A DNA stretch of 64,000 nt from Escherichia coli (GTDB lineage Bacteria > Pseudomonadota > Gammaproteobacteria > Enterobacterales > Enterobacteriaceae): assembly GCF_022846255.1 (NCBI RefSeq), contig NZ_AP025682.1, one strand, 5' to 3'. Shown one piece after another: positions 10,429 to 37,401 of the stretch; position 1 is the stretch's first letter, and the number at the start of each line of letters is the position of its first letter. The position numbers and the translations under genes were made by a program. The notes beneath the pieces were generated by a model. The model was not told where the DNA came from. It was given only the letters and a program-made list of their open reading frames with translations, and did not search any database.

Positions 10429-11730
10429 TTATTTTAATGGACTAATATCACTATTATTATCGCTATCTGTGATTTTTTCCCCATTCACGGAGATCATTCC
10501 CTGGATATATGAATCCCATAGATGTACGTCACCTTTATGAAAAATAATGCATGACATTGCGATTTTTTGTACTTTATATATCTGTTTATAGTATTCTTCT
10601 GAGTTTAATGGTGTATCTTTCAAGCTTTCATTCCTTGCTGGAAGAATCTTGACGGGACAGATAAAATCTGTATCCCCGAGTGAAAAGACATTAACTCCGG
10701 TTATAAAAAAGATACCCGGAATGTCTTGATGCAATCTCGTATTCCAGACTTGAGGATTAAACAGTTTATATGAATATTTATTTACATCTATATAATATTG
10801 ATGAGGACGCCAATCACTGATACCCGACATACTCATCGTCATATTGATAATTATATCAGGAATAGGTTTGAATAATACACTTAGAATGAACAATATGGCA
10901 GGAGGGAGTATTGCGATAGATAGCAAAGAGTTCAACCCTTCTTCTTGTTTTTCTTCTTGCTCATTTATCACTATCACACCTGGCAACATTCCTAAAAAGA
11001 TAAAAGCTAATGCAATGCAAGAAAATGATAGAAACTGTGATAAGATATCTGCACTCTCTTCAAGTCTGATCTTATTTGTCAAAAATAGCAGGGGGATAAT
11101 CTGAACAAGCCCGGGTAGAATTAAACATAAAGGAAGAGTGTATCTTATCCTGTTCCTGGGACGATATTGTTCGTGATTCTCGTGATTCTCGTGATTCTCG
11201 TGATTCTCGTGATTCTCGTGATTCTCAATGTTCTGTTCCCGAGGGGTATTTTTAGTGAATATTAATTTTTCTGAGAGGAAATATGAGACGAAATAATTAA
11301 ATAATACTATTAGTATTACTTCTGATATGGATGGATATAGAGTATTTTCTTCTGAAAAGGTAGACAGAACTGACTTTAGCACTAATGAAAAATAGAAAAC
11401 AACACTGTTCATATAGCAAATTATAGCAATTCTGTGCGCGATTCCTTTGTGATTTTTATAATAGTCTTTATGCCATGTATATGTATACACCAATACATGA
11501 GAAGATATAAAAATCAGTGAGGTTAGAGCCATTAGAGATAAAAGGATAAATATAAAGATAACACTTAAATAAAACTTTATGTCTATTGAGTCGAAAAACA
11601 AATCAAGTCTACCGAGTCCTTGCAGATAGAACCATATTGCAGATATGGCGCATCCTGTACTAAATACAGAAGACGTTAACATGGCGAGAAAAGCTTTATT
11701 ATTTAAATGTGAAAAGATAGATCTATTCAT
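10429..11730 (-). CDS. hypothetical multi-pass membrane protein with internal (ENH)6 repeat and ~130-aa C-terminal soluble domain
   Basis: ~433-aa ORF (ATG 11730; track start GTG 11739); ~7-8 hydrophobic helices; His-rich loop NIENHENHENHENHENHENHEQ encoded by a 9-bp tandem repeat; AT-rich codon usage. Confidence 0.55.
   Translation of the reverse strand: MNRSIFSHLNNKAFLAMLTSSVFSTGCAISAIWFYLQGLGRLDLFFDSIDIKFYLSVIFIFILLSLMALTSLIFISSHVLVYTYTWHKDYYKNHKGIAHRIAIICYMNSVVFYFSLVLKSVLSTFSEENTLYPSISEVILIVLFNYFVSYFLSEKLIFTKNTPREQNIENHENHENHENHENHENHEQYRPRNRIRYTLPLCLILPGLVQIIPLLFLTNKIRLEESADILSQFLSFSCIALAFIFLGMLPGVIVINEQEEKQEEGLNSLLSIAILPPAILFILSVLFKPIPDIIINMTMSMSGISDWRPHQYYIDVNKYSYKLFNPQVWNTRLHQDIPGIFFITGVNVFSLGDTDFICPVKILPARNESLKDTPLNSEEYYKQIYKVQKIAMSCIIFHKGDVHLWDSYIQGMISVNGEKITDSDNNSDISPLK
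11171..11226. repeat. 9-bp tandem repeat (TCGTGATTC)x6 inside the membrane-protein CDS
   Basis: Six perfect tandem copies seen directly; unit is 3 codons, so copy-number change is frame-preserving. Confidence 0.9.
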
Positions 11731-11945
11731 TATAAGCACATCATATTCTGTTGAGTATATGTCGATTTTATAATGTCATGTTCATGCAGATAATATCATA
11801 AGTAACATTAGTTGAACAAGAACAGAGTTGTAACAGATAAAGATCTCGTTGTTAGTTACATGATCTGATAAATGTTAGCATGAAATAGTAACTATATGAA
11901 GGATATAAGAACCTGTATCATAATGTCATATGCGTTATATCTGAT

Positions 11946-12707
11946 TCAGATATATTTTAATTTTGCTGATAGTTCTCGACATGCTTCAAGAACCAAAGTG
12001 GAATAATATTCTACTTTTTCTTTTGGCATTTGAATTTCCACACCACTAATGCTGATAGCAGCAATTGCTTCTCGAGCCTGATTAAACACCGGGGCGGCAA
12101 TGCAATAAATTCCTGGTGAATCTTCTGCGTTATCAAAAGCCCATCCTCGCTCACGAATACGTGCAAACTCTAGTATTAGATCAGATTTCCGAGTGATTGT
12201 CGTTTGCGTAAATCGAGGCAATGCCTCCTCAGGTAGTAAAGTGTCAATGACGTCTTGAGGTAACCATGCGCATAACGCTTTCCCCACCCCTGAGCTATGG
12301 AGTGGCAGCTTCTTACCTACCCACGTTCTGATACCAATTGGTTGAGTGCTTTCGAGTTTTAAGATATAGATTGGAGCGACTTCCTCAAGAATGCCTAAAT
12401 GGCAGATAAGATCAGTACTATCTCTCAGTTTTTCCAGCACCGGTCTCGCTACCTTACTTATGTCAAACTGTTCTAGCGAGCGATTTCCCCATTCATATAA
12501 TTTCAGTCCAAGGAAAAAACGCCCCCTTTCCTGACGTAACAAATGGTGTTCGACCAGAGCATTCAGTAAAGATGATGTGCTGCTTTTAGGCAGAGCCAGA
12601 TCTTGCTGGATTTGACTGAATGTGGCACCAGGAGAGTTGAAAAGATAATTGCAGATTCTGACTGTTTTATCGAGTGCTGGTACTGGTGTTCTTGTTTGAT
12701 TATTCAT
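11946..12707 (-). CDS. IclR-family transcriptional regulator
   Basis: 253-aa ORF; N-terminal HTH and C-terminal IclR effector domain pattern (GxxxLxxxDxxxxxxGWAxDxEExxxGxxCxAAPVF); divergent from the DapA-like operon. Confidence 0.85.
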   Translation of the reverse strand: MNNQTRTPVPALDKTVRICNYLFNSPGATFSQIQQDLALPKSSTSSLLNALVEHHLLRQERGRFFLGLKLYEWGNRSLEQFDISKVARPVLEKLRDSTDLICHLGILEEVAPIYILKLESTQPIGIRTWVGKKLPLHSSGVGKALCAWLPQDVIDTLLPEEALPRFTQTTITRKSDLILEFARIRERGWAFDNAEDSPGIYCIAAPVFNQAREAIAAISISGVEIQMPKEKVEYYSTLVLEACRELSAKLKYI

Positions 12708-13204
12708 AAAAAAATAACATATGATTTCTTACCAATGCTAAATAGTATACCCCAATCTTTATTAATGCATAGTGATGCTTAATCATTATGTTGCAGTTGA
12801 TCGACACAGGGGGACAAGAGTAGTTGTGTCACTGCCACATCACCCGGCATGCGATTTCACATCGGGATGTTCGAGAAGCATCAATGCTGCGCCCAAGATC
12901 CACCGAAAAGAAACGTGGGAATCACCGGCGGTGGGATTCATTGTCTATGCCCGTGTAGATTAGTGTGGATTTGCTGCACAGATGGTTCCGGTCTGAGAAA
13001 TGGGTAAATTCGTCGTTTACGACGGGAAGCTGCCTACACATGTTATACATCGTCTTCGTGTATCAACATGCTCCTATAAACTCGACTCAACTCACATTTT
13101 TCATTTCACATTGTAAAAACCTTTGACATGCAGAACCTTATTCTGATTCATTATATTCAACATGAAGAACTTTTGTTCCATATACAGAACTTAGTGAGAG
13201 CGAT

Positions 13205-14104
13205 ATGTTGACAGCGTTTAGAGGTATTTTTCCGCCGGTTCCTACTATTGTTGACGCACAGGGGAAACTGGATAAGACGGGTATGGCCCGAATGATTGAC
13301 CATGTAATAGAGAATGGTGCAAACGGAATGCTGATCCTAGGCAGTGGGGGCGAATTCTCACAATTTTCTTCCCAACAACGAAAAGAGATAGCAGCATTTT
13401 GTTTAAATCATGTAGATGGAAGAGTGCCTGTACTGGTGGGGGTTGCTTGTGCCGGGACAGCAGAAACTATTGAGCTGGGACGCCATGCTTATGAGCACGG
13501 AGCTGATGGTGTGCTGGTTGTTAATCCGTATTATGCAAAACTCAGCGATGATGCCCGGTTTATGCATTATAAATCTATTGCTGATACACTTGAAATCCCG
13601 GTGTTTCTCTATAACTTTCCTGATTTAACCGGCCAGGATATTGGACTTGAAGTCATTACCCGGCTGGCCCGGGAAGTTCCTAATATCGTGGGTATCAAAG
13701 ATACAATCGATAACATCAGTCATACCCGAGAAATTATCAACCGTGTACATTCATTTCGTCCGGATTTCATTATATTCAGTGGTTATGACGAATATATGCT
13801 GGACACTCTGTTACTGGGTGGTCATGGCGGTATTCCGGCAACATTCAATTTTGCTCCGGAAATCACACGGGGTATTTATCAGGCTGTTATGGAAAATGAT
13901 CTTGATAAGGCGCGTTATTTCCAACAACAACTGGCAAAATTGTCTCCGTTGTATGCGCTTGAGCAACCTTTCTTTGGGGTGATAAAGACCGCCATCAAAC
14001 TGAGTGGACTGGACATATCTACTGCAGTTATGGCACCGGCTCTTCCGCTCAGTGATGAGAAAATATCCAGAGTAAAATCCATTCTGGAACAAATTCATCA
14101 GTAA
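13205..14104 (+). CDS. DapA/NAL-family class I aldolase/dehydratase (2-keto-3-deoxy sugar acid type)
   Basis: 299-aa ORF; GSGGEFSQ and NFPDLTGQD...VGIKDT motifs; ~50% identical by eye to the YjhH-like ORF at 29909-30814. Confidence 0.85.
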   Translation: MLTAFRGIFPPVPTIVDAQGKLDKTGMARMIDHVIENGANGMLILGSGGEFSQFSSQQRKEIAAFCLNHVDGRVPVLVGVACAGTAETIELGRHAYEHGADGVLVVNPYYAKLSDDARFMHYKSIADTLEIPVFLYNFPDLTGQDIGLEVITRLAREVPNIVGIKDTIDNISHTREIINRVHSFRPDFIIFSGYDEYMLDTLLLGGHGGIPATFNFAPEITRGIYQAVMENDLDKARYFQQQLAKLSPLYALEQPFFGVIKTAIKLSGLDISTAVMAPALPLSDEKISRVKSILEQIHQ

Positions 14105-14120
14105 TCACGAGGGACGCAGG

Positions 14121-15638
14121 ATGAATAACTCTCAGGTACTCAAACTCAATAATCTGGATGATGTTGTGATTGCCATAACAGAGCTTCCTGCCGGAAGCTG
14201 GTTGAAGGCAGAAAATATCGAAACGCGTGACCTTATTCCGGCCGGACACAAAATTGCTCTTCGTGATATTCCTGCTGGTAGTGCGGTTAAGCGCTATGGA
14301 CAAATTATCGGCTTTGCCACTCGTGATATCCGCCAGGGGGAACATATTCATGTTCATAATCTCGGTATGGGAAATTTTGAACGTGATTATGCCTGGGGAA
14401 TAGACAGCCATCTTCCTGAGCGGGATGTCCATCAGGATACTTTTATGGGGATCAGAAGAAAAGACGGGCGAGTGGCAACCCGTAATTTTATCGGTGTGCT
14501 GAGTTCGGTGAACTGTAGCGCAACCGTGGTCAGAGCCATTGAGGATCATTTCCGTACCCGAGGCCTGAGCGATTACCCGAATGTTGATGGTATTGTCGCA
14601 TTGCCTCAGAGCTTCGGCTGCGCCTTTGGCTCTAATACTGAAATGATGAAAGTCATGCGGAGAACGATAGCAGGCTATGCCACTCACGTAAACTTTGCCG
14701 GGATTGTGATAGTGGGACTGGGATGTGAATCATTCCAGATTAAGGACATGATGAATGCCCATGGACTACATGAAAACCCGATGTTTCATACACTGACAAT
14801 TCAGGAAAGTGGCGGAACACGCAACGCTATCGAAAAGGGTATTTCGTTTATTCTTGATATGCTGCCGGAAGCCAACAATGTTAAACGTGAACCTGTTCCA
14901 GTGTCAGAAATTATCCTGGCCCTTGAGTGTGGTGGCTCAGACAGTTACTCAGGAATTTCTGCCAACCCGGCACTCGGTTATGCAGTTGATCGTCTGGTCC
15001 GTCAGGGAGGGACGGCCATTCTGTCCGAAACATCAGAAATCTACGGAGCTGAGCATCTTCTGACACGCCGTGCTATTAATCGTGAAGTGGGAGAAAAGCT
15101 AATCCGCAGGATTAAGTGGTGGGAGGAGTACTGTAAACGTACGGGTAGTGAAATGAATAACAATCCCTCCGCAGGTAATAAAGCGGGAGGGCTGACTACT
15201 GTTCTGGAGAAATCACTGGGTGGAATCGCTAAAGCCGGGACAACCAGCTTAATGGATGTGTATGAATATGCTGAACCTGTAACAGCAAAAGGGCTTGTCT
15301 TTATGGATACCCCCGGGTACGACCCGATGGCGGTAACTGGGCAAATTGCCGGAGGCGCTAATCTACTGTGTTTTACCACGGGTAGGGGATCTGCCTTTGG
15401 AGCAAAACCCACGCCTTGTCTGAAACTGGCGACCAATAATGCATTATGGCAACGACAGCGTGATGACATGGATTTAAACTGTGGCACGATCGTTGATGGT
15501 GAAGAAACGATTGAACAGGTAGGGGAACGTATTTATCAGAGAATTATTGAGCTGGCTTCAGGTAACCGTAGCCGAAGTGAAGAACTTGGGTATGGGAGTC
15601 TGGAATTTGTTCCTTGGATAATGAACTCAATAATGTAA
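14121..15638 (+). CDS. UxaA/GarD-family sugar-acid dehydratase (altronate/galactarate dehydratase-like)
   Basis: 505-aa ORF; SD GAGGGA; N-terminal SAF-like region and C-terminal dehydratase region typical of this family (recalled). Confidence 0.75.
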   Translation: MNNSQVLKLNNLDDVVIAITELPAGSWLKAENIETRDLIPAGHKIALRDIPAGSAVKRYGQIIGFATRDIRQGEHIHVHNLGMGNFERDYAWGIDSHLPERDVHQDTFMGIRRKDGRVATRNFIGVLSSVNCSATVVRAIEDHFRTRGLSDYPNVDGIVALPQSFGCAFGSNTEMMKVMRRTIAGYATHVNFAGIVIVGLGCESFQIKDMMNAHGLHENPMFHTLTIQESGGTRNAIEKGISFILDMLPEANNVKREPVPVSEIILALECGGSDSYSGISANPALGYAVDRLVRQGGTAILSETSEIYGAEHLLTRRAINREVGEKLIRRIKWWEEYCKRTGSEMNNNPSAGNKAGGLTTVLEKSLGGIAKAGTTSLMDVYEYAEPVTAKGLVFMDTPGYDPMAVTGQIAGGANLLCFTTGRGSAFGAKPTPCLKLATNNALWQRQRDDMDLNCGTIVDGEETIEQVGERIYQRIIELASGNRSRSEELGYGSLEFVPWIMNSIM

Positions 15639-15705
15639 TAACACAGGGCAGAGTTTATCCTGCCCTGTTGAAGTAAACACCGTTTTAGATAATTAGAGGT
15701 GAATA

Positions 15706-16713
15706 ATGGAACAGAAACCTGTGTTGGGAATTTTTTTAGGTGAAGCTGCCGGTATCGGACCAGAATTGATTGCTAAGGTTGTTGCTGATGGTACTGTCTA
15801 TAAATATTGCAGACCCGTTCTGATTGGTGATGCCCGTGTTCTTGCTCTTGGACAAAAGATTGCGGGTGTTCATTTTCAATGGGATGTAATAAGTGACCCA
15901 TCAGAGGCAGACTGGAGCACAGGAAATGTACCATTACTTGATTTAAAAAATTTCAACCCCGAAAAACTAACTATGGGGACCATTGATACCGATTCAGGTT
16001 ATGCAACCGGGGAATCATTGGTAACCTGTATGTCATTACTCAAATCAGGAAAGATTGATGGTTTTGTTTTTGCTCCATTGAATAAAGAGGCGTTCAAGAA
16101 AGGGGGCTGGGATATTGAAGACGAACATTATCTGTTTGCAGAGCAGTTAGGATGCCTGGATAGACCTCGCGGCCTGTTGAATGTCCTGGATGATCTCTGG
16201 GTTTTCCGTGTGACCGGACATATTCCGTTCAAAGATATTGCCAGCCATATTACTCCAGAAAATGTTAGCCGTTCGATTCAGTTATGCTATGACACACTAC
16301 GTATGGCAGCTATTGAAAATCCGCGAATTGCAGTTGCTGCACTTAATCCCCACGCCGGGGATGGTGGAACCTGCGGCACCGAAGAAATAGACGTGCTCAT
16401 TCCAGTAATTGAAAGTTTTCGAAAGAAAGGAATGGACATGTATGGGCCAGTTCCAGGTGACACCATTTTTATTCATGCGTTTAATCATGAATATGATGCG
16501 GTTGTTACCCTGTTCCATGACCAGGGACAAATTGCTACTAAACTGCATTCCTTTGACGTGGGAATAACTGTTGCCGCAGGACTTCCGTTCGCTATTACAA
16601 CACCAGAACATGGCACTGCATTTGATATTGCAGGTAAGGGGATCGCAAAAACAATGGCTACAGAGAGGGCTATTGCCGTGGCGGCCAGAATGGCTTCTAC
16701 AACACATAAATAA
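15706..16713 (+). CDS. PdxA-family NAD-dependent dehydrogenase (PdxA2-like)
   Basis: 335-aa ORF; SD AGAGGTG; PdxA-type pattern (AALNPHAGDGG..., HDQGQIA). Confidence 0.75.
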   Translation: MEQKPVLGIFLGEAAGIGPELIAKVVADGTVYKYCRPVLIGDARVLALGQKIAGVHFQWDVISDPSEADWSTGNVPLLDLKNFNPEKLTMGTIDTDSGYATGESLVTCMSLLKSGKIDGFVFAPLNKEAFKKGGWDIEDEHYLFAEQLGCLDRPRGLLNVLDDLWVFRVTGHIPFKDIASHITPENVSRSIQLCYDTLRMAAIENPRIAVAALNPHAGDGGTCGTEEIDVLIPVIESFRKKGMDMYGPVPGDTIFIHAFNHEYDAVVTLFHDQGQIATKLHSFDVGITVAAGLPFAITTPEHGTAFDIAGKGIAKTMATERAIAVAARMASTTHK

Positions 16714-16983
16714 AAATTCATAATAGCAGATAATATAATGTCTAATCTATACAGATAGATGTGAATATTATCTGCGTTATAATAAACTGTATAAGGCTAT
16801 TATAAATAACAGTCGGTGTTTTGATAAGTTGCTGGTTGTTATATCTTTAAAACGAGTTGATGATATTTATTTACTAGATATTCAGTGCGATTATAGCAGT
16901 ACTGTATCGCAAGAAAATAGCAGTGCTGGGGAAGTAGAAAGAATAAATTGCGATTTGCATGCTCATAGATAAGGATAGATCTC

Positions 16984-18342
16984 ATGTATTCAGAATCATT
17001 TGTGATGATAAGTGGGCTTGTTGCAATAGTTATACTTATCATCTTGATCACCCGATTTAAGCTTCATCCTTTTTTTTCATTGCTTATATCGTCTGTATTT
17101 TTGGGAATTGTGAACAATATTGGAGTGGCGAAAAGTGTAGATATATTTACGCACGGGTTTGGTAGTCAACTGTCTGTCACGGGGGTAGTTATCGGCTTAG
17201 GCGCAATGTTGGGGGGGCTATTGGTACAGTCTGGAGGAGGGGACAAAATAGCCGATATTATTATTGGGTCTAGAAAAATTGTTTGGATGCCTCTGTGTAT
17301 TGGTATAGTTTCGTTAATCATCGGTCTACCTAACTTGTTTGAAGTTACTTTTGTACTGATGGTACCCCTTGTGTTCTCTATTACCAAACGTTTGGGGTTA
17401 CCTGTTCTCAGAGTTGCACTCCCAATGTCTGCAGGATTAATGACAGCTCATGCGTTATTACCGCCTGGTCCGGCAACTATTATCGCTGCTACGGCTTATG
17501 GTGCCAGCATCGGAGAAACTACGCTTTATGGGGTGATTATTAGTATACCTGTTCTACTCTCAGGAGCTTATCTTTTCCCAAAAATAATGCACAAACATCT
17601 TAACGTGGGAGAACCTTTGGCACTGAATGAAACTGAACATAGACGGGGAAATAACGAACGTCAATTATATCGCCAACCATCGCTGACTGTCGCTTTGATA
17701 ACAGTTATGATCGCCCCTTGTCTGATGATTGTTGGGACTATTGGACTTGACTTTTTGCCAAAAACAGGTGTGGTCACAGAGGTATTCCAGGCACTAGGCA
17801 ATCCAGTAATAACTCTTGGACTTGCTCTGGTTTATGCCATGATATTTCTGGGACGGGGAGTGGGTTTTAGTAATGAAGAAATCCTGTCTATCAGTAAGAA
17901 AAGTATTGTGCCTATTGTTGGTTTGTTGCTAATTATCGGTGGAGGCGGTGGATTAAAAAACATACTAACAGCAATTGGTCTAAGTGATATTATCAGTAAC
18001 TTTGCTACGGATTGGTCTATTCCTCCGCTATTATTTGCATGGCTGGTGGCAGCTATTTTCCGCATTGCGCTTGGCTCTGGAACGGTGGCGGTCTCAGCTT
18101 CAGGAGGAATCGTTGCCGCGTTACTTACAGCACATCCAGAAACTAACGCAGCTCTATTGGTACTTTCAACTACGACTGGGGCAATGATTTTTTCACATGT
18201 CAGTGATGGGGCATTTTGGTTATTCAAAGAATACTTTGGACTTAGCGTACCACAAACTATTCGCACATGGAGTTATTTAGTCACGATACAGTCCATTGTC
18301 GGGCTTATAGGTGTATTGGTTCTAGGCGCTATTCTCAGTTAG
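16984..18342 (+). CDS. GntP-family (gluconate:H+ symporter family) permease
   Basis: 452-aa polytopic ORF with GntP-type motifs (LPPGPATIIAA...; IIGGGGGLK). Confidence 0.85.
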   Translation: MYSESFVMISGLVAIVILIILITRFKLHPFFSLLISSVFLGIVNNIGVAKSVDIFTHGFGSQLSVTGVVIGLGAMLGGLLVQSGGGDKIADIIIGSRKIVWMPLCIGIVSLIIGLPNLFEVTFVLMVPLVFSITKRLGLPVLRVALPMSAGLMTAHALLPPGPATIIAATAYGASIGETTLYGVIISIPVLLSGAYLFPKIMHKHLNVGEPLALNETEHRRGNNERQLYRQPSLTVALITVMIAPCLMIVGTIGLDFLPKTGVVTEVFQALGNPVITLGLALVYAMIFLGRGVGFSNEEILSISKKSIVPIVGLLLIIGGGGGLKNILTAIGLSDIISNFATDWSIPPLLFAWLVAAIFRIALGSGTVAVSASGGIVAALLTAHPETNAALLVLSTTTGAMIFSHVSDGAFWLFKEYFGLSVPQTIRTWSYLVTIQSIVGLIGVLVLGAILS

Positions 18343-18427
18343 TGGTTCTGTATTCAATATATAAGAAAGCAATATCAAGTTTTAACATCTTTAATTTAAT
18401 AGATATAGTATTAAAGGAGAGTAATTT

Positions 18428-19693
18428 ATGTCCTCCAATGAGAAAGCAACAAATATAAGATGGAGAATATTTTTTGTACTTTTTCTTCTTGTTGTTGTCA
18501 GTATGATTGATCGAGCCTCAATATCTATAGCTATGCCTACTATCGCTAAAGATTTGGGATTAAGCGATACGATGCAGGGATTAATACTAAGCGGTTTTTT
18601 CTGGACTTATGCTTGTATGCAAATACCCGGTGGGTTTCTGGCCGATAAATTTGGGGCAAGAATTGTACTGACATGTTCTGCCATTATTTGGGGAACTGCA
18701 GAAGCCTTATTAGGATTATGCCCAACAGGTTTCGCTTTACTTGCTGCTAATCTATTGCTTGGTGCAAGTGAAGCACCTGTGTTTCCCTCAGGCGCTAGAC
18801 TTAATGCAATTTGGTTAAATAAAAATGAAAGAGCTCGTGGAGCAACATTAATGGATGCCGGAGGTCCATTTGGGGCTGCAATTGGTGGAATATTAGTAGC
18901 TGAAATGATGCTTTATTTTGCATCGTGGCGGGTTACATTCATTATCTGTGGTGTTGCGGCTATCACTCTGGGGTTAATAGCTTACTGGATTATTCGCGAC
19001 AAACCTGAAGATTCACCAAATGTAAATGATAAAGAATTAAGTATTATTAATCTCGATCGTGTTGAGCAACATATAGTAGCAGAAAACAATGAGCCATTAT
19101 TAAAGGTTATTCCTCTACGTTCTTTTATTGGTATGCTTTTAGGTCGTTGTTCATGGGCAATGTGTTTCTTTGGTTTATTAACCTGGGGACCAGGATATCT
19201 TACACGAGCATTAAATCTGGATTTAAAAGCTGTTGGTTTTGCCACAATGATTATATTTTGCGCAGGTGGTTGTGGTAGTCTTTGTGGCGGATGGCTGGCA
19301 GATAAACTCGCAAGTAAAGGATTTGGGCGAGCTAGAACGTGTAAATTTCTATTAACTGTATCAGGTATCTGTACACTAATATCATTTGCTTTATTACCAA
19401 GCATACCAGATGTAAAAACATCAATTATTCTGCTGTCCTGCGCCGCGTTTGTTTTGATGTGGGGTAGTATGTACTGGACGTTTCCTCCTTTATTAGCTCC
19501 CCGTTCCCGTGTAGCTACTGTCGGGGGCATGATGAATATGGCTGGAAGTGTTGGAGGTATTTGCATTCCACTATTGGTAGGACTTATTTTGGATGTGACG
19601 AACTCATTCAATCCTGTACTCTACTTTTTTGCTGGTTGTGCTGTAATATTTATTTTAATGACTAATATTATCGATTTACGACACGTGCGATAG
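18428..19693 (+). CDS. MFS transporter (anion:cation symporter-type, sugar-acid transporter-like)
   Basis: 421-aa ORF; SD AAGGAGAG; 12-TM MFS pattern with MIDRASISIAMPTIAKDLGLS N-terminal signature. Confidence 0.85.
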   Translation: MSSNEKATNIRWRIFFVLFLLVVVSMIDRASISIAMPTIAKDLGLSDTMQGLILSGFFWTYACMQIPGGFLADKFGARIVLTCSAIIWGTAEALLGLCPTGFALLAANLLLGASEAPVFPSGARLNAIWLNKNERARGATLMDAGGPFGAAIGGILVAEMMLYFASWRVTFIICGVAAITLGLIAYWIIRDKPEDSPNVNDKELSIINLDRVEQHIVAENNEPLLKVIPLRSFIGMLLGRCSWAMCFFGLLTWGPGYLTRALNLDLKAVGFATMIIFCAGGCGSLCGGWLADKLASKGFGRARTCKFLLTVSGICTLISFALLPSIPDVKTSIILLSCAAFVLMWGSMYWTFPPLLAPRSRVATVGGMMNMAGSVGGICIPLLVGLILDVTNSFNPVLYFFAGCAVIFILMTNIIDLRHVR

Positions 19694-19702
19694 GAGATAA
19701 AC

Positions 19703-20653
19703 ATGAACATCAAGCCACTAAATTTATATGATGGCCCTGTAATTGATGCGCATCATCACTTCTGGGATCCGATAGAAAATGATCATCCTTGGCTAAAGCC
19801 GGATGTTTTAATTCCTTTTAGATATGGTGATTATACGGCGATTAAGAAAAAATATTATCCTGAAGATTATTTTGCAGATGTAGGTGATATTAATGTCGTT
19901 GAAACCTGTTATATGGAGACTGAATGGAATCCAGCGGATCCATGTGGTGAAAGCGATTTCATTACATCAGTAGCAAAAATGACAGGTTATCCAAATGCTG
20001 TTGTCGGACAGGCTTGGTTAAATCATGATGATATAGATTCTGTGTTGAAGATGCAGAGTTCATATGAGTTGATGCGAAGCATCAGGCATAAGCCAGAGGG
20101 GCCTGATAAACCAGAGGATGTTGGATCGTATACAACTCTGATGAGTGATGAAAGATGGCGATATGGGTATTCATTACTTTCAAAATACAATCTAATGTTT
20201 GATCTGCAAACCCAGTGGTGGAATTTGCATGAAGCTGTAAAACTGGCAAATGATTTCCCAGACACAGTAATAATCCTTAATCATACAGGGCTCCCTGCAC
20301 AACGTTCTGTTGAAGGGTTGGCCGGGTGGCATTCAGCAATGGCTTCTTTGGCTGAATGTGAAAATGTGATGGTTAAAATATCGGGTATAGGTTTAAAAGG
20401 GATTCCATGGACAGTGGAGAATAATCTATGGATAATATCTGAAACGTTATCAATGTTTGGTCCTGACAGGGTCATGTTTGCAAGTAATTTCCCCGTGGAC
20501 AGTCTTTGTGGCAGTTTCAGTGATATATTTCATGGCTTTATGACTGTTTGCGAGATGAAAGGGTATTCACATGCGGCTCAGCGGAAAATGTTTCATGACA
20601 ATTGTAAGAGAATCTATCGAACAATCCCACCAAGTGAATTGAAGGAAGTATAG
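19703..20653 (+). CDS. Amidohydrolase_2-family metal-dependent hydrolase (lactonase/decarboxylase type)
   Basis: 316-aa ORF; SD AGGAG; N-terminal DAHHHFWDP metal-binding motif typical of this family. Confidence 0.7.
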   Translation: MNIKPLNLYDGPVIDAHHHFWDPIENDHPWLKPDVLIPFRYGDYTAIKKKYYPEDYFADVGDINVVETCYMETEWNPADPCGESDFITSVAKMTGYPNAVVGQAWLNHDDIDSVLKMQSSYELMRSIRHKPEGPDKPEDVGSYTTLMSDERWRYGYSLLSKYNLMFDLQTQWWNLHEAVKLANDFPDTVIILNHTGLPAQRSVEGLAGWHSAMASLAECENVMVKISGIGLKGIPWTVENNLWIISETLSMFGPDRVMFASNFPVDSLCGSFSDIFHGFMTVCEMKGYSHAAQRKMFHDNCKRIYRTIPPSELKEV

Positions 20654-20805
20654 CTGATAATCATATTTAATGATATCTGAGGTTTATTATTGTATAACTC
20701 ATGGAAATTCATGATTCGTAAATGTGAGTTATATCTATATGCTGTTGAATAGTGATACGCAAGAAGCACATAAAAATATAACATAATAATACTCCGTAAA
20801 CATTT

Positions 20806-20834
20806 CCCCCTTTTAAAAGAGGGGGAGTTTTTAT
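20806..20834 (+). terminator. rho-independent terminator after the acid-sugar operon
   Basis: GC stem CCCCCTTTT/AAAAGAGGGGG followed by AGTTTTTATT. Confidence 0.6.
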
Positions 20835-22311: not shown

Positions 22312-23397
22312 ATGTCCATTCTTCGTCCGAACGAAAATCTTGCAGCAGCTCTCAGCGATGATTCAGAGTTCAGCAATAGCATGCAGTTCAGGTTAATCCT
22401 GGCAAAGACTGTTGATGCAGGAGCCCCGGTTCCAGCGGATCTGGCTCTGACGTGGGTGACAAACCATATTGAATACTCATTACGAACCCCCGCCCGCCGC
22501 TGTGCGAAAGAATTTGCTGCACTATTTAAACGGCGTTACACCCTTAAATACGGTGAAGGGATGGTAGTGAAGCCGAATAAAGCGCGTCTGCGTTTAGATT
22601 ACACGCCTGCAAGTCCCAGTTTGAGAGGTATTCGGCTTCCTGTTCCTGACTTGCCTGATCCAAGTGCATTGAAAGGCCCTGTTCAGAAGCTTATGACTCT
22701 TGCTGATATATGCACAGATGAACTGGATGCTTACAGTCGTTACCTTGGTAGAAAAGGCACTTCAGCAAATGATACCGCTGCAATTTTGTTGCTGCCTTCA
22801 GAAATCGTTAACGAAAGCGCAGATAAATTATTAAGTGCATTCAAACGCTGGGCTGATGACGCGATCCTCAGTAAGGGGGGAGTAGTTTCAGTTGCTGACT
22901 TCTGGTCACACATGAATGCTACCTGTCCGGCAAAGATCAACAAAAAAGAGGCCGACTTGATGCAGGCCTTTGCACAGAAAATGGGGTACTGCCTGGCTCC
23001 TGACCCCTATTACCACCACGTAAAAGCAAATGTCGATGGTGTTCTTGTTTTATTCCCTGCTGGTGAAAGTGGCCGCTTCTCTCCTTCTCCTGAATTTATC
23101 ACAGCTGTATTGACGCTCCGATTAGGTTCGGTAGTCGCCTTGATTGACAATTCTTTCGATCAAGCCGAACAGAAAGTGCTTGAGAATGCCATCAACAACA
23201 ATGTCAGCTTCAGCGATGATGAAAAGCGCTCTCTGCACGCATATTTAACGTGGCAGCTTCATACCCCGGCGAATATGACGGGAATGAAAAGCCGGATTGA
23301 ATTACTCGGTGCAGCGGAAAAATCAGCTGTGGGTAAGGTTATCGTTAGTGTCGCTTGCTCTGACGGCAGAATTACGCCTGCCGAAATCAAACTGTAG
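22312..23397 (+). pseudogene. TerB-domain protein gene remnant, 3'-truncated by the IS911-like element
   Basis: 361-aa ORF; C-terminal TerB-like repeats (VALIDNSFDQAEQKVL; VSVACSDGRITPAEI); TAG stop 23395-23397 overlaps the IS left end; frame stays open upstream into the preceding IS, so the 5' end may also be lost. Confidence 0.5.
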
Positions 23398-25758: not shown

Positions 25759-26949
25759 TTATATAGCTGGTGACTCTTTTCGAAGAGCATCAAGGTAGTC
25801 AGCGTACCATTGCATCATTTCTCGTCTTCCTTCAAGGTAACGAGCATGGTTGTATGTACCACGAATGCTGTTTTTGTCCGTATGTGCAAGTTGCATTTCA
25901 ATCCATGCACTATTGAATCCTTGCTCGTGTAGAACAGTACTCATTGTATGACGAAATCCATGCCCGGTAGCTTTTTTGTCATAGCCAATCTTCTTCAAAA
26001 CCATATTGACGCTTGCATCGCTGATAGGCCTGTTAACATCATTTCTTCCGGCAAAGATGTATCTGTATCTTCCAGTCAGTTCTTTGAGGATTTGCAGAGA
26101 CTGGATTGCCTGATCTGACAGAGGGACGATATGCTCCTTCCTCATTTTCATCCGGGTCGGAGGAACTTCCCATATCTTTTGGGTAAAATCGATCTCACAC
26201 CATTCCCCCATACGTAATTCTACTGTTCTCAGCCCTGTGAGCATCAACAATTTTGTAGCTTCACGGGTTACAATACTGCCGGTGTAGTTTTCGAGTTTGT
26301 ATAAAAACTCTGGTAGTTCAGGAGGAAGCAGGAAAGGGTAATGTGTTCGCTTATAGCTTTTCATTGCTATAACCAGATCAGAAGCTGGATTGTATCGTGC
26401 CCGACCTGTAACAATGGCATACCGAAACACTTCACCACATCGTTGGCGAACTTTATTAGCTAGCTCGCAGGCTCCTCGGCTTTCGATACGCTGAAGAACT
26501 GCGAGAAGTTCAAGAGGTTCGATTTCACTAATGGGTCTGTTTCCAATGTAGGGAAACACATTATTTTTGAATGCTCTGTCGACATAATCAGCGTAGCTGG
26601 CAGACCAGCCTGAAACTTTTGCGTTGTACCACTCGGTGGCGATTGCGGCAAAAGTTCTTCCTTCGGAAAGGTTTTTCTCAAGATTTTCAGCTTTCTTGAC
26701 TTCACCGGGATCTTTACCATCGGCATGTATTTTCTTGGCTTCATCCCGACGTTTGCGAGCTTCAGCCAATGTAATAGTTGGATAGGTGCCAAATGATAGT
26801 TTCTTTTCCTTCCCCGCATAGTGGTACTTCATTCGCCAGTACTTTGAGCCGTTAGGATTGACCTGAAGGTAGAGCCCACCACCATCGGCAATCTTATAAA
26901 TTTTATCTTTGGGTTTGGCTGTTTCAACTTGTCGAGCTGTCAGTGGCAT
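25759..26949 (-). CDS. int: P4-type tyrosine integrase (internal copy)
   Basis: ORF 25759-26976; likely start ATG 26949 (MPLTARQVETAKPKDK...) with SD GAGG; P4-family N-terminal pattern and C-terminal catalytic R...HxxR...Y region. Confidence 0.85.
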   Translation of the reverse strand: MPLTARQVETAKPKDKIYKIADGGGLYLQVNPNGSKYWRMKYHYAGKEKKLSFGTYPTITLAEARKRRDEAKKIHADGKDPGEVKKAENLEKNLSEGRTFAAIATEWYNAKVSGWSASYADYVDRAFKNNVFPYIGNRPISEIEPLELLAVLQRIESRGACELANKVRQRCGEVFRYAIVTGRARYNPASDLVIAMKSYKRTHYPFLLPPELPEFLYKLENYTGSIVTREATKLLMLTGLRTVELRMGEWCEIDFTQKIWEVPPTRMKMRKEHIVPLSDQAIQSLQILKELTGRYRYIFAGRNDVNRPISDASVNMVLKKIGYDKKATGHGFRHTMSTVLHEQGFNSAWIEMQLAHTDKNSIRGTYNHARYLEGRREMMQWYADYLDALRKESPAI

Positions 26950-27076
26950 CTGGGGGCCTCGCAATAGATTGACCAAGATGTGCCCCTAAATAGGCCCCCA
27001 AATGTGACTTGATTTACGTTCCCCTGAGGAGAATTAAGGCGACTATTTGAGTAACATAAGTAAGGGTATGTGCTGA

Positions 27077-27640
27077 TTATAAAGGCTTTTTGTGGGGTAT
27101 GGTAGATTTCAGGAGAGGTGTGCATGGTGTCCCCTGCAGAATGATGTAAACACCTGCTGCGAAGGTAATAGATTGCATGATGGAGAACATGAACCAGTTT
27201 TTACCACCACTAAGCTCTTTCACCACATCTGCACGCGCAAACAGGCACGTCACCAGGAAAATTATGCTCATGGTAAAAGAGATAGCAACCGGCGTGTCGC
27301 GCAAGAACAGCAGACTTTTCGGCACATTCATGTCTTCAGTCGAGTGGTCTTTATTACCAAACTTGCTGCCGATGAAACCGGCCAATACATAATATAATGT
27401 TGAGAAGTGGCCGATGGCAACGTCATCAGAACCGGTCACTTTCTTCATGTACGGATGCGCAATAGCCGGGAAAAAGACCATTGCCACGCCAACAACCAAA
27501 GAGCCAACGGCTATAAGCGTAATGCCGGTCATGCCTGCTGTTGCCAGAATTACCGCTACCATCATCGACATAAACAACGTGTGATGACCGGTCAGGAAGA
27601 TAAATTTCCACGGTGTGAAACGGGCAATCAGAATGTTGAT
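27077..27640 (-). pseudogene. PTS EIIC internal fragment (ascorbate/galactitol-superfamily permease; possibly sgc-derived)
   Basis: Membrane ORF fragment resembling the UlaA/SgaT-type EIIC core; no native N- or C-terminus; abuts the rpe-like fragment in opposite orientation. Confidence 0.5.
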
Positions 27641-27642
27641 AA

Positions 27643-28014
27643 CCATCAGAACCGCTGGACTATCCCTCGGAAACGTTAGCTGAGATCCGCCATACCGGCG
27701 CACGAGCCGGGCTGGCATTTAATCCGGCGACCCCAATCGACGCCTGGCAATATCTAGCGTCTGAGCTGGACGGCGTGATGGTGATGACCTGTGAGCCCGA
27801 TGGGCACGGACAGCGGTTTATTCCCTCTATGTGCGAGAAAATCCAAAAAGTACGCACGGCTTTTCCTCAGACCGAGTGCTGGGCCGACGGTGGAATTACG
27901 CTGGCGGCAGCACAGCAACTGGCTGCAGCCGGGGGGCAGCATATGGTGATTGGGCGCGTCTTGTTCTTTTCATCTGACTATCGCGCGACCTTAGCTCAAT
28001 TCGCCACCCTGTAA
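27643..28014 (+). pseudogene. ribulose-phosphate 3-epimerase-like (sgcE-type) 3' fragment
   Basis: In-frame translation ...AGLAFNPATP...PDGHGQRFIPSMCEKIQKVR...ADGGITLAAAQQLAAAGG... matches the C-terminal ~120 aa of Rpe-family proteins; N-terminal two-thirds absent. Confidence 0.7.
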
Positions 28015-29115: not shown

Positions 29116-29904
29116 ATGGTTCGCAAAGGGTGTAATTCATTAGTCCGTGCTGAAAAAATATTAACCCACATTGCATGGGTTGGTATGGCAAGTTATATGG
29201 AGTTATTAAATAAATTTCAGTACCCAAAAAGCAGCCTGCTTAATTTATTGAATGTAATGGTGGAGTGTGGTTTCTTAATTAAAAACAAAAACGGCTACTA
29301 TTCACTGGGAATAAAAAACTACGAATTGGGTTGTCAGGCGTTACACCGCCAAAATATATTTGAGGTGACTAAGCGGCCAATGCAGGAGTTGTCGCTGAAA
29401 AGTGGACTGGTTTGTCATCTTGGGGCGATGGAGAGCATTTCGGCTATTTATCTCGACAAGATCGAAAGTCCGGACTCTGTACCGACGAGCAAAAGCTGGA
29501 TTGGCAAAAAACTTGAGTTGCATATTACCGCGTTGGGTAAGGCATTATTAGCCTGGAAGACACGAGAAGAATTAGATTATTTTTTAGAAGCACTCACGTT
29601 AACTCCGCATACGCGCAATACATTTACCGATAAAAAATCATTTCTGGAAGAATTACAAAAAACACGCCTTCGGGGATGGGCCATAGACAACGAAGAATCA
29701 ACCTATGGTGCGGTATGTTTAAGTATGCCGGTATTCAATATGTATAACAGAGTTAACTATGCAATCTCACTTTCTGGCGATCCGGTAATTTATTCAGGAA
29801 ATAAGATAGACAGCTATCTGGAGTTGCTCCGGAAATGCACAGGGCAAATATCATATGGGCTGGGATACAGAAACGAAAATGAGCATTTACGAAAAGGAAA
29901 CTGA
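29116..29904 (+). CDS. yjhI: IclR-family regulator (YjhI-like)
   Basis: 262-aa ORF; paralogous to the IclR at 11946-12707; stop overlaps SD of the next gene. Confidence 0.8.
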
Positions 29905-29908: not shown

Positions 29909-30814
29909 ATGAAAAAATTCAGCGGCATTATTCCACCGGTATCCAGCACGTTTCATCGTGACGGAACCCTTGATAAAAAGGCAATGCGCGAAGTTGCCGA
30001 CTTCCTGATTAATAAAGGGGTTGACGGGCTGTTTTATCTGGGTACCGGTGGTGAATTTAGCCAAATGAATACAGCCCAGCGCATGGCGCTCGCCGAAGAA
30101 GCTGTAACCATTGTCGACGGGCGAGTGCCGGTATTGATTGGCATCGGTTCCCCTTCCACTGACGAAGCGGTCAAACTGGCGCAGCATGCGCAAGCCTGCG
30201 GCGCTGATGGTATCGTCGCCATCAACCCCTACTACTGGAAAGTCGCCCCACGAAATCTTGACGACTATTACCAGCAGATCGCCCGTAGTGTCACCCTACC
30301 GGTGATCCTGTACAACTTTCCGGATCTGACGGGTCAGGACTTAACCCCGGAAATCGTGACGCGTCTGGCTCTGCAAAACGAGAATATCGTTGGCATCAAA
30401 GACACCATCGACAGCGTTGGTCACTTGCGTACGATGATCAACACAGTTAAGTCAGTACGCCCGTCGTTTTCGGTATTCTGCGGTTACGATGATCATTTGC
30501 TGAATACGATGCTGCTGGGCGGCGACGGTGCGATAACCGCCAGCGCTAATTTTGCTCCGGAACTCTCCGTCGGCATCTACCGCGCCTGGCGTGAAGGCGA
30601 TCTGGCGACTGCCGCGACGCTGAATAAAAAACTACTACAACTGCCCGCTATTTACGCCCTCGAAACACCGTTTGTCTCACTGATCAAATACAGCATGCAG
30701 TGTGTCGGGCTGCCTGTAGAGACATATTGCTTACCACCGATTCTTGAAGTTTCAGAAGAAGCCAAAGAAAAAGTCCGCGCACTGCTGTCCGCGCAAGGTA
30801 TTTTATCGGACTGA
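29909..30814 (+). CDS. yjhH: DapA-family 2-keto-3-deoxy-pentonate (xylonate-pathway) aldolase YjhH-like
   Basis: Start ATG 29909 (MKKFSGIIPPV...) with SD GAGG; GTGGEFSQ, NFPDLTGQD, GIKDT motifs. Confidence 0.85.
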   Translation: MKKFSGIIPPVSSTFHRDGTLDKKAMREVADFLINKGVDGLFYLGTGGEFSQMNTAQRMALAEEAVTIVDGRVPVLIGIGSPSTDEAVKLAQHAQACGADGIVAINPYYWKVAPRNLDDYYQQIARSVTLPVILYNFPDLTGQDLTPEIVTRLALQNENIVGIKDTIDSVGHLRTMINTVKSVRPSFSVFCGYDDHLLNTMLLGGDGAITASANFAPELSVGIYRAWREGDLATAATLNKKLLQLPAIYALETPFVSLIKYSMQCVGLPVETYCLPPILEVSEEAKEKVRALLSAQGILSD

Positions 30815-30824: not shown

Positions 30825-32792
30825 ATGTCTGTTCGCCATATTTTTGCTGACGAAAGTCGCGATATCTACACCGTCAGAACCCACGCAGATGGCCCTGACG
30901 GAGAACTGCCTCTGACGGCGGAAATGCTCATCAACCGCCCGAGTGGGGATCTGTTCGGGATGACCATGAATGCCGGAATGGGCTGGTCTCCGGACGAGCT
31001 GGATCGGGACTGTATTCTACTGCTCAGCACACTGGGAGGGGTACGCGGGGCAGACGGTAAGCCCATCGCGCTGGCGTTGCATCAGGGCCACTACGAGCTG
31101 GATATCCAGATGAAAGCGGCTGCGGAGGTAATCAAAGCGAACCGTGTCCTGCCCTATGCCGTCTATGTTTCCGATCCGTGCGACGGACGAACTCAGGGTA
31201 CGACGGGTATGTTTGACTCGCTACCGTACCGTAATGACGCCGCCATGGTGATGCGTCGTCTTATCCGCTCTCTGCCCGATGCAAAAGCCGTCATAGGCGT
31301 GGCGAGCTGCGACAAGGGACTTCCGGCCACCATGATGGCGCTTGCCGCGCAGCATAACAAAGCGACGGTGCTGGTGCCCGGTGGCGCGACTCTACCCGCA
31401 GGGGATGGGGAAGATAACGGCAAGGTGCAGACCATCGGTGCCCGCTTCGCCAATGGCGAGTTATCACTACATGATGCCCGCCGTGCGGGTTGTAAAGCCT
31501 GTGCCTCCTCCGGCGGCGGCTGCCAATTTCTGGGCACCGCCGGGACATCACAGGTAGTAGCTGAAGGATTAGGACTGGCTATCCCGCACTCAGCACTGGC
31601 CCCATCCGGCGAACCGGTGTGGCAGGAGATAGCCAGAGCCTCCGCGAAGGCGGCGTTGAACTTATGTAAACAAGGCATCACCACCCGGGAAATACTTACC
31701 GATAAAGCGATTGAGAATGCGATGACGGTCCATGCGGCGTTCGGTGGTTCAACAAATCTGTTGCTGCATATTCCGGCGATTGCCCATCAGGCCGGCTGCC
31801 ATATTCCAACCGTTGACGACTGGATCCGCATCAACAAGCGGGTGCCCCGACTGGTAAGCGTACTCCCCAATGGTCCGGTTTATCACCCGACAGTGAATGC
31901 CTTCATGGCGGGAGGTGTGCCGGAGGTGATGCTGCATCTTCGTAGTCTGGGATTGCTGCATGAAGACGTGATGACGGTCACCGGCAGCACGCTGAAAGAA
32001 AACCTGGACTGGTGGGAGCATTCCGAACGGCGTCAGCGGTTCAAACAGCTTCTGCGCGAACAGGAGCAGATCGATGCCGACGAGGTGATCATGTCGCCAC
32101 AGCGGGCACGGGAGCGCGGCCTGACCTCAACGATCACTTTCCCGGTGGGCAATATTGCCCCGGAAGGGTCGGTTATCAAATCCACCGCCATCGATCCCTC
32201 GGTGATTGATGATCGGGGCATCTATTACCATAAAGGCGTGGCGAAGGTTTATCTGTCCGAGAAAAGCGCGATTTACGATATCAAGCACGAGAAGATTAAA
32301 GCGGGCGATATTCTGGTCATCATCGGCGTTGGCCCTTCCGGCACCGGGATGGAGGAAACCTACCAGGTCACCAGCGCCCTGAAACATCTGTCCTATGGCA
32401 AGCATGTTTCACTGATCACCGATGCGCGTTTCTCGGGTGTTTCCACGGGAGCCTGTATCGGCCACACAGGGCCAGAAGCACTGGCCGGAGGGCCAATCGG
32501 TAAATTACGCACCGGAGATATTATTGAAATTAAAATTGATTGTCGCGAGCTTCAGGGCGAAGTCAATTTCCTCGGAACCCGTAACGATGAAACATTACCC
32601 TCACGGGAGGAGGCCACCGCAATATTAAACGCCCGACCCAGTCATCAGGATTTACTTCCTGATCCTGAACTGCCAGATGATACCCGACTCTGGGCGATGC
32701 TCCAGGCGGTAAGCGGCGGGACATGGACGGGTTGTATTTATGATGTAAATAAAATCCGCACGGCCTTGCGCGATTATATGAATAAAAACTGA
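30825..32792 (+). CDS. yjhG: IlvD/EDD-family dehydratase (D-xylonate dehydratase YjhG-like)
   Basis: Start ATG 30825 (MSVRHIFADE...) with SD GAGGAGAG; ~655 aa; IlvD/EDD signature with Cys-rich cluster (CDGRTQG, SCDKGLPA). Confidence 0.85.
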   Translation: MSVRHIFADESRDIYTVRTHADGPDGELPLTAEMLINRPSGDLFGMTMNAGMGWSPDELDRDCILLLSTLGGVRGADGKPIALALHQGHYELDIQMKAAAEVIKANRVLPYAVYVSDPCDGRTQGTTGMFDSLPYRNDAAMVMRRLIRSLPDAKAVIGVASCDKGLPATMMALAAQHNKATVLVPGGATLPAGDGEDNGKVQTIGARFANGELSLHDARRAGCKACASSGGGCQFLGTAGTSQVVAEGLGLAIPHSALAPSGEPVWQEIARASAKAALNLCKQGITTREILTDKAIENAMTVHAAFGGSTNLLLHIPAIAHQAGCHIPTVDDWIRINKRVPRLVSVLPNGPVYHPTVNAFMAGGVPEVMLHLRSLGLLHEDVMTVTGSTLKENLDWWEHSERRQRFKQLLREQEQIDADEVIMSPQRARERGLTSTITFPVGNIAPEGSVIKSTAIDPSVIDDRGIYYHKGVAKVYLSEKSAIYDIKHEKIKAGDILVIIGVGPSGTGMEETYQVTSALKHLSYGKHVSLITDARFSGVSTGACIGHTGPEALAGGPIGKLRTGDIIEIKIDCRELQGEVNFLGTRNDETLPSREEATAILNARPSHQDLLPDPELPDDTRLWAMLQAVSGGTWTGCIYDVNKIRTALRDYMNKN

Positions 32793-35593: not shown

Positions 35594-35625
35594 CTGCCCC
35601 ATGTGGATATGGGGCAGGATTTTAT
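35594..35625. terminator. bidirectional rho-independent terminator
   Basis: Stem CTGCCCCAT / ATGGGGCAG with 6-nt loop, followed by GATTTTATT; sits between convergent genes. Confidence 0.6.
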
Positions 35626-36626: not shown

Positions 36627-36729
36627 AAATAACTCCTTGTGGTAGTTATAATCAATCGTTGTGGACAGAGGGCATAACAGCCATTCCTCGAATGGCTGTT
36701 ATATGTTATTAATTAAAATAAAGCTGTAA

Positions 36730-37371: not shown

Positions 37372-37401
37372 TACTGCTCCTTAACAGAAGTGATCGTCGT
37401 T

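Follow-up and report, generated by a model that had tools for sequence, protein, structure and literature searches.

Two aldolase loci of an Escherichia coli genomic island as probable independent, anciently diverged operons for sugar-acid catabolism

Two gene pairs, each encoding an IclR-family regulator and a DapA-like aldolase, lie within a 64,000-nucleotide stretch of Escherichia coli DNA (contig NZ_AP025682.1, assembly GCF_022846255.1), here referred to as the window. They raise the question of whether one module was duplicated and then fitted with another dehydratase or whether the two loci have separate histories, and of which compounds they might degrade. A sequence-only reading had described the pairs as clearly paralogous and had suggested that 2-keto-3-deoxy sugar-acid pathways evolved in a modular fashion by swapping of the dehydratase. 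The positions that it gave were correct: in locus 1 the regulator gene, here called IclR1, occupies 11946-12707 on the minus strand and the aldolase gene, Ald1, occupies 13205-14104 on the plus strand, and in locus 2 the yjhI gene occupies 29116-29904 and yjhH ends at 30814. On balance, comparison of the sequences makes it probable that these loci are operons for non-phosphorylative sugar-acid catabolism which are independent of each other and diverged in the distant past. Locus 2 is yjhIHGF, a D-xylonate operon that has been studied before; locus 1 belongs to an already known kind of pathway and would most likely serve D-arabinonate and/or L-fuconate, or their lactones.

Ald1 is a class I aldolase of the DHDPS/NAL family (PF00701, 270.4 bits, residues 5-296) and falls in the YagE/YjhH subfamily. 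Its alignment with YjhH was gapless, with 134 of 294 residues identical (46%; E 1e-98; 277-280 bits by BLASTP to YagE/YjhH). This value is above family-level similarity (<30%) and far above the identity of Ald1, YjhH and YagE to E. coli DapA (30-31%) and NanA (25-29%), which argues that the likeness of the aldolases did not arise by chance; their paralogy was upheld, with the earlier figure of approximately 50% proving slightly too high. Ald1 was 47% identical to YagE, and YjhH and YagE were 59% identical to each other. Among solved structures the best match to Ald1 was YagE (296 bits), followed by a DapA (151 bits). Residues K165 (in the motif GIKDT), Y136 (YNFP) and Y110 were invariant in an 11-sequence aldolase alignment, and we take them to be the equivalents of the DapA catalytic residues, namely the Schiff-base lysine and the active-site tyrosines.

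A set of 1.84 billion cluster representatives was searched with the aldolase and a neighbour-joining tree was built, in which the Ald1 clade stood beside the YjhH/YagE clade. In 54 of 60 bootstrap replicates, YjhH, YagE and two cluster representatives (P0241 and P0242) formed a group with Ald1 plus three close homologues, apart from 20 other top-scoring representatives, DapA and NanA. By these comparisons Ald1 and YjhH belong to sister clades of one subfamily, and Ald1 is predicted to be a 2-keto-3-deoxy sugar-acid aldolase. At 46% identity, the two aldolases diverged long ago.

The claim of clear paralogy did not hold for the regulators. IclR1 (Pfam HTH_IclR and IclR_C domains) shared 79 of 227 residues with YjhI (35%, 146 bits), which is ordinary IclR-family similarity, and was closer to YfaX, the regulator of the L-rhamnonate cluster (38%, 169 bits); its identity to XynR and KdgR was 31%, and that of YjhI to XynR, KdgR and YfaX was 31-33%. 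IclR1 and YjhI were therefore not each other's closest E. coli IclR paralogues. A neighbour-joining tree was constructed from IclR1, YjhI, six other K-12 IclR paralogues and 29 aldolase-adjacent regulators; an exclusive clade of IclR1 and YjhI was recovered in 9 of 100 bootstrap replicates, and one of IclR1, YjhI and XynR in none of 100. The regulators of the two loci were recruited separately. The loci also differ in regulator orientation, since IclR1 is divergent from its operon, with a 497-bp spacer before Ald1, and yjhI is co-directional with yjhH across a 4-bp gap. The GC content was 42.3% for locus 1 and 51.1% for locus 2. Within locus 2 it was 40% for yjhI, 52% for yjhH and 56.5% for yjhG, and the lower value suggests that this regulator joined the operon from a different source.

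The putative regulatory sites differ as well. Upstream of Ald1, an alignment of eight loci revealed a conserved footprint at 13123-13190 on the plus strand, a candidate promoter/operator comprising an invariant TTGAC (13123-13127) and an invariant GAAC-N4-GTTCCATATA-N2-GAAC (13167-13190) located 14 nt before the start codon. The 24-nt motif at 13167-13190 occurs once in the window; exact copies were found in 13 related loci, which belong to Escherichia, Citrobacter, Salmonella, Raoultella, Phytobacter, Serratia and Budvicia. Upstream of Ald1-clade aldolases, variants of the form GTTC-N8-GAAC are present in Gilliamella and several further proteobacterial loci, most of them from Alphaproteobacteria, regardless of the type of dehydratase. 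Nothing similar to the GAAC/GTTC-type motif was observed upstream of yjhI or yjhH. The 13167-13190 motif is a candidate IclR1 operator, derived solely from the cross-species alignment: in a consensus scan of locus 1, promoter sites were no more frequent than in shuffled sequence, and an inverted-repeat scan of both regulatory regions gave nothing convincing. Neither the common E. coli allele nor the Citrobacter and Salmonella loci contain approximately 278 bp of the IclR1-Ald1 intergenic region (12758-13035), and this segment had no match in 5426 complete E. coli genomes.

The two loci were also said to be coupled to unrelated dehydratases, and the adjacent dehydratases are indeed unrelated: the locus-1 enzyme is of the UxaA/GarD type, YjhG is of the IlvD/EDD type, and the best E value between them was 0.47. 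The UxaA/GarD-superfamily gene follows Ald1 at 14121-15638 on the plus strand (SAF, 52 bits; GD_AH_second, 137 bits; GD_AH_C, 334 bits). Its product matched an E. coli protein cluster at 100% identity; its identity to E. coli UxaA was 32% and to GarD 37%. Aligned over its full length (506 columns) with C785_RS13685, a protein of Herbaspirillum huttiense, it showed at least 53% identity, a lower bound because the reference sequence was taken from a machine-read supplementary alignment figure that contained errors. C785_RS13685 is a characterised D-arabinonate dehydratase (PMC6336799). The motifs around its four conserved cysteines (C134, C173, C208 and C276), as read from published mutagenesis primers, are all present in the locus-1 enzyme as SVNCSAT, FGCA, VGLGCE and LECGGS. 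The primer-derived termini of characterised D-arabinonate dehydratases (MKANSP...IGVYT and MSTDAL...LGAVM) had no match among the 120 homologues listed. These similarities place the locus-1 enzyme, by sequence, in the D-arabinonate/L-fuconate dehydratase subfamily of UxaA/GarD.

The dehydratase has been exchanged repeatedly among relatives of these loci. One genome per species was scanned, which yielded 544 loci encoding relatives, and the best 80 of the 544 were fetched with their flanks; neighbours were classified by tblastn and Pfam, and the nearest dehydratase within 4.5 kb was counted. The resulting tree had 86 leaves: the fetched loci supplied 82 aldolases, and the rest were the window and K-12 references and a DapA outgroup. 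A UxaA/GarD-type dehydratase was assigned to 23 of the 86 leaves, an IlvD/EDD type to 11 and an enolase-superfamily type to eight; none was recognised for the other 44, one of which was the DapA outgroup. By parsimony the dehydratase type changed at least 10 times on the aldolase tree, with four of these changes inside the Ald1 clade.

The exchange was clearest in Gilliamella, where five loci at the same chromosomal site have genes for PTS-EI, PGI, IclR, Fe-ADH and aldolase in common. These genes are followed by those for a UxaA-type dehydratase, a LarA-like isomerase, an MFS transporter and LarC in two of the loci (L025 and L029), and by MFS and IlvD-type dehydratase genes in the other three (L027, L028 and L049). 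Between L025 and L027 the aldolases were 93.6% and the IclR regulators 94.0% identical; nucleotide homology (88%) ends approximately 65 bp short of the aldolase stop codon and is picked up again at the right flank. The UxaA-LarA-MFS-LarC and MFS-IlvD cassettes thus replace each other behind 94%-identical aldolases. Dehydratase swapping is borne out in the family, but not as the history of the two window loci, in which the module was supposed to have been duplicated as a unit and then re-fitted. Neither is the idea of swapping new, since "significant phylogenetic mosaicism" among a few enzyme superfamilies has been described for non-phosphorylative sugar pathways (PMC6336799). Two loci had tandem genes: in Gilliamella sp. 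wkB108 (L029:8909-12025) two UxaA-type dehydratase genes follow the aldolase gene, and in a metagenome-assembled genome from the Acetobacteraceae (L053:8001-10100) two aldolase genes precede one UxaA-type dehydratase gene.

The remaining genes of locus 1 are all on the plus strand and separated by short intergenic gaps. They encode a PdxA-family dehydrogenase (15706-16713; PF04166, 290 bits, below every NCBIfam equivalog cut-off), a GntP-family permease (16984-18342; PF02447; TIGR00791, 353 bits), an MFS transporter resembling the D-galactonate/anionic sugar-acid transporter subfamily (18428-19693; PF07690; TIGR00893, 237.7 bits, sub-cut-off) and an Amidohydro_2-family hydrolase, predicted to be a sugar-acid lactonase (19703-20653; PF04909, 129 bits). 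A terminator-like hairpin, identified as a pattern match in a consensus scan, closes the operon on the same strand (20804-20827; a 10-pair stem followed by a T-run). The locus-1 proteins of the window were 93-96% identical to those of the common E. coli allele (94% for IclR1), which was present in 451 of the 5426 complete E. coli genomes (approximately 8%); the window carries a rarer allele of locus 1. Besides this allele, the Citrobacter braakii locus has the GntP gene; neither the common E. coli allele, as seen in strains DFL.5 and DP033, nor the loci of Salmonella diarizonae and C. werkmanii contain it, as though the gene had recently been inserted into the operon or lost from it. The GntP permease was 35% identical to YjhF.

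Locus 2 has the order sgcR, yjhI, yjhH, yjhG, yjhF, yjhU; annotated E. coli records match it colinearly, with 98% nucleotide identity. All four genes of its operon are on the plus strand. The yjhI gene (29116-29904) encodes the IclR-family activator of the yjh operon, is 98% identical to K-12 YjhI and is annotated in the matching E. coli records. The yjhH gene (29909-30814) encodes the 2-keto-3-deoxy-D-xylonate (D-pentonate) aldolase, is 97% identical to K-12 YjhH and matched PF00701 with 368.5 bits; its start is that of the E. coli records, a longer open reading frame beginning at 29855. The yjhG gene (30825-32792) encodes the IlvD/EDD-family D-xylonate dehydratase (TIGR03432, 1202.8 bits against a cut-off of 808.15; 68% identity to YagF), and yjhF (32899-34248), so annotated in matching records, encodes a GntP-family permease (TIGR00791, 652 bits) that is presumed to transport D-xylonate. 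The function of YjhH and the D-xylonate pathway have been described (PMC13279387); YjhI is an activator and XynR a repressor, and both sense KDX, which is the dehydratase product 2-keto-3-deoxy-D-xylonate (PMC13279387).

From these assignments we infer a scheme in which each locus would convert an acid sugar to a 2-keto-3-deoxy acid and then to pyruvate and a small aldehyde. In locus 2, YjhF would import the substrate, YjhH yields pyruvate and glycolaldehyde, and YjhI senses KDX. The input of locus 1 would be an acid sugar of the opposite (2S,3R) configuration. Its MFS and GntP permeases would import D-arabinonate, L-fuconate or a lactone, the Amidohydro_2 enzyme would open the lactone, the UxaA-type enzyme would dehydrate the acid, and Ald1 would cleave the product to pyruvate and glycolaldehyde or L-lactaldehyde. 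IclR1 would exert control at the GAAC/GTTC motif that closely precedes Ald1, and its signal would probably be the keto-deoxy intermediate. In many relatives a gene for an Fe-ADH that resembles glycerol dehydrogenase/glycolaldehyde reductase flanks the aldolase gene, as would be expected if the product is a small hydroxy-aldehyde. The stereocentres at C2 and C3 are lost on dehydration, and D-xylonate and D-arabinonate are alike in configuration at C4, so that D-arabinonate would give the same keto-deoxy-pentonate as YjhG makes (chemistry and PMC6336799). If the substrate of locus 1 is D-arabinonate, both loci would converge on D-2-keto-3-deoxypentonate, and this shared intermediate would explain a conserved aldolase beside a variable dehydratase.

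Several points weigh against this assignment. All of the trees were neighbour-joining trees, the identity to C785_RS13685 is a lower bound, and the name D-arabinonate dehydratase, which one RefSeq record gives to a 95%-identical E. coli protein (WP_001044501.1), is similarity-based. Members of the UxaA/GarD superfamily also act on L-galactonate, D-altronate and D-threonate (for D-threonate, PMC10079672), so that the family does not fix the substrate of locus 1. There is no sugar 1-dehydrogenase in locus 1, hence a lactonase is not obviously needed, and the match of the Amidohydro_2 protein to L-fucono-1,5-lactonase was weak, at 36-77 bits and far below the cut-off (NF052480, 77.5 bits against a cut-off of 400; PDB 4dlf/4dnm, 36.5 bits). 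The conserved PdxA-family gene fits nowhere in the simple scheme. Finally, 43 of the 82 aldolases from the fetched loci had no recognisable dehydratase within 4.5 kb; adjacency is no proof of coupling.

The PdxA-family gene was compared across relatives. Homologues with 69-74% identity were found in two GC-rich metagenomic contigs (L102:3188-7996 and L103:3243-7993), in which an IclR gene is divergent from genes for a DHDPS-family protein, an MFS transporter, an Amidohydro_2 protein, a split UxaA-type dehydratase and PdxA. Identity to the window proteins was 69-71% for MFS and 77-79% for Amidohydro_2, as against 49% for the aldolase, 37-38% for the split dehydratase and 26-32% for the regulator. 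The difference between 69-79% for the trio and 26-49% for the other parts suggests that PdxA-MFS-Amidohydro_2 travels as a unit of its own. Other relatives have either LarA/LarC in place of the trio or no accessory gene. The LarA-like gene, a match to "nickel pincer cofactor-dependent isomerase, group 22" (513 bits, cut-off 400), lies directly after the UxaA-type dehydratase gene in loci from Budvicia, Superficieibacter and Gilliamella (L020, L022:10603-11901, L023, L025:8979-13059 and L029). LarC accompanies it in four of these five loci, the flank of L029 ending first, and LarA/LarC occupy the place where the E. coli version has the PdxA-family gene. There was no kinase near the PdxA-family gene, and a search of the literature for a PdxA-family enzyme in sugar-acid clusters found nothing relevant. 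The PdxA cluster of the BEN2908 genome paper is a different one, which carries a DUF1537 kinase.

Tentatively, then, locus 1 may be a three-layer mosaic, consisting of an IclR-operator-aldolase core, an exchangeable dehydratase cassette and a separate trio, in which the PdxA-family enzyme would carry out a step not described so far, acting on a non-phosphorylated acid sugar and feeding the dehydratase; elsewhere a LarA-type isomerase would fill this slot. As a corollary, loci 1 and yjh would converge on keto-deoxy-pentonate and their regulators could cross-talk within the island.

The alternative that survives best is that locus 1 acts on some other acid sugar, such as L-galactonate, D-altronate, D-threonate or an aldarate or uronate derivative, that the trio prepares this substrate, and that there is no convergence with the xylonate pathway. 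The promiscuity of UxaA/GarD members across (2S,3R) acids, the 37% identity of the locus-1 dehydratase to GarD and the resemblance of its MFS protein to acid-sugar transporters all speak for it, and co-inheritance of the trio at 69-79% identity with differing aldolases and dehydratases in the two metagenomic contigs suggests that the trio defines the input. We nevertheless regard this alternative as unlikely, given that the nearest dehydratase of characterised function acts specifically on D-arabinonate and L-fuconate and that many relatives consist only of IclR, aldolase, dehydratase and MFS genes, without the trio.

A second alternative concerns Ald1 itself, which could in principle be a DHDPS-family dehydratase (a KDP dehydratase or a KdgD-like enzyme) in an alpha-ketoglutarate-forming "Route II". 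The DHDPS family includes such dehydratases (PMC6336799), and Ald1 matched KdgD models at 114-121 bits, which is below threshold. The scores of Ald1 against the aldolases YagE and YjhH given above (277-280 bits, 46-47% identity) were far higher, locus 1 contains no alpha-ketoglutarate-semialdehyde dehydrogenase gene, and the Fe-ADH genes that accompany its relatives are aldehyde-reductase-like; a KdgD-like function was judged very unlikely. The literal form of the sequence-only reading, a recent duplication of an IclR-aldolase module within the island followed by replacement of the dehydratase, could draw on the adjacency of both loci in the window and in the leuX island of strain DP033 and on their same-subfamily aldolases, but it was rejected as highly improbable, because identity between the aldolases is just 46%, the regulators resemble YfaX or KdgR at least as closely as they resemble each other, orientation, operator and GC content (42% against 51%) differ, and each locus is more closely related to counterparts from other genera than to the other locus. 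The loci are not a recent duplication.

The window is a mosaic E. coli island, many segments of which match E. coli genomes at 98-99% identity, with a tRNA-Phe gene at 61022-61097 and an adjoining integrase gene at 59562-60824. The description of both loci as part of one island holds loosely, in that they share a composite island beside the tRNA-Phe gene and its integrase; within it they are kept apart by two IS3-type elements, a TerB-like open reading frame, a second integrase gene and a truncated PTS IIC gene. The neighbourhood of the two loci recurs in E. coli DP033 (L101; NZ_CP096110.2, 4418213-4446289), in which approximately 5 kb separate the common locus-1 allele from the yjh operon at the leuX tRNA island; their order and orientation match those of the window. 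The exact arrangement of the window was found in no complete genome.

The second integrase (25759-26976) is of the P4 type and is annotated beside tRNA-Arg in other E. coli genomes; no tRNA gene was found beside it in the window. It is followed by the truncated PTS IIC (sgcC-like) gene, the pair spanning 25759-27718 and marking a junction of island modules. The TerB-like open reading frame (22312-23397; 361 residues) lies between the two IS3-type elements, has a weak TerB match and partially matches SngA of the Shango defence system (82 bits); as it has no partner genes, it is probably a remnant. This fragment gave the only PADLOC match among the orphan open reading frames flanking locus 1. 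One of 436 residues just downstream of IclR1 (10429-11739, minus strand) had no Pfam, NCBIfam or PADLOC match, and another of 355 residues (8733-9800, plus strand) had weak TPR matches; the 5.1-11.9 kb segment lies outside the best matches in complete E. coli genomes. An Rfam scan of 11000-36000 gave zero matches. Downstream of yjhU, on the minus strand, 35622-39786 encodes a GRP sugar transporter, a fuculose-phosphate-aldolase-like protein, MtnA and MtnK, as is also the case in E. coli SCEC020001 and DP033. This cluster resembles the 5-deoxyribose/methylthioribose salvage cluster of extraintestinal E. coli.

Nothing here overturns current understanding, and the conserved PdxA-family component is the item with some novelty. 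Locus 1 is an uncharacterised accessory operon that probably widens the range of sugar acids that E. coli can use in the gut; fuconate and arabinonate originate from glycans of the host and of plants, and the analogous locus of Campylobacter jejuni gives a colonisation advantage. The Gilliamella loci provide a clean, breakpoint-resolved case of cassette replacement inside an operon. YjhH, YagE and arabinonate dehydratases are already used by pathway engineers, for whom the data form a natural catalogue of aldolase-dehydratase pairings, and IclR1 and its motif represent a candidate regulator-operator pair for biosensors.

Of the known systems, the E. coli operons yjhIHGF and yagEFGH/xynR share with locus 1 an IclR regulator, an acid-sugar permease, a dehydratase and an aldolase of the same subfamily (46-47% identity). 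Like them, locus 1 has no sugar dehydrogenase gene, so the acid itself is presumably the substrate. It differs from them in that its dehydratase is of the UxaA/GarD rather than the IlvD/EDD type, its regulator gene is transcribed divergently and the product shares only 31-35% identity with YjhI and XynR, PdxA-family and Amidohydro_2 genes are added, and the predicted substrate has the opposite C2/C3 configuration.

Compared by published gene list, locus 1 also resembles the C. jejuni L-fucose/D-arabinose locus cj0480c-cj0490, with the same families in nearly the same order. The latter encodes a divergent IclR repressor, FucR, together with DapA-like, UxaA, MFS and amidohydrolase proteins, and its proposed route leads from lactone to acid to keto-deoxy acid and then to pyruvate and an aldehyde, with DapA-like cleavage as the last step (PMC12566272, PMC6946681). 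Only the C. jejuni locus encodes FucX (a sugar dehydrogenase), FucP, a mutarotase and an aldehyde dehydrogenase, and a PdxA-family gene is absent from it; where it has these four, locus 1 has the PdxA and GntP genes, and no SDR, mutarotase or Aldedh gene was found within 11946-20653. The H. huttiense enzyme C785_RS13685 is the closest characterised relative of the locus-1 dehydratase, alike in superfamily and in the four cysteines, but its keto-deoxy product passes to an FAH-type dehydratase or to a dehydrogenase and hydrolase (Routes II and III) and not to a DHDPS-type aldolase (PMC6336799); among the pentoses, the aldolase route is listed only for D-xylose and L-arabinose (PMC6336799). The E. 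coli L-rhamnonate cluster yfaXWVU (rhm), like locus 1, has an IclR regulator, a dehydratase, an MFS transporter and a keto-deoxy sugar-acid aldolase, and YfaX is the closest K-12 paralogue of IclR1 (38%). It differs in having an enolase-superfamily dehydratase and an HpcH class II aldolase, and thus represents another combination of like parts.

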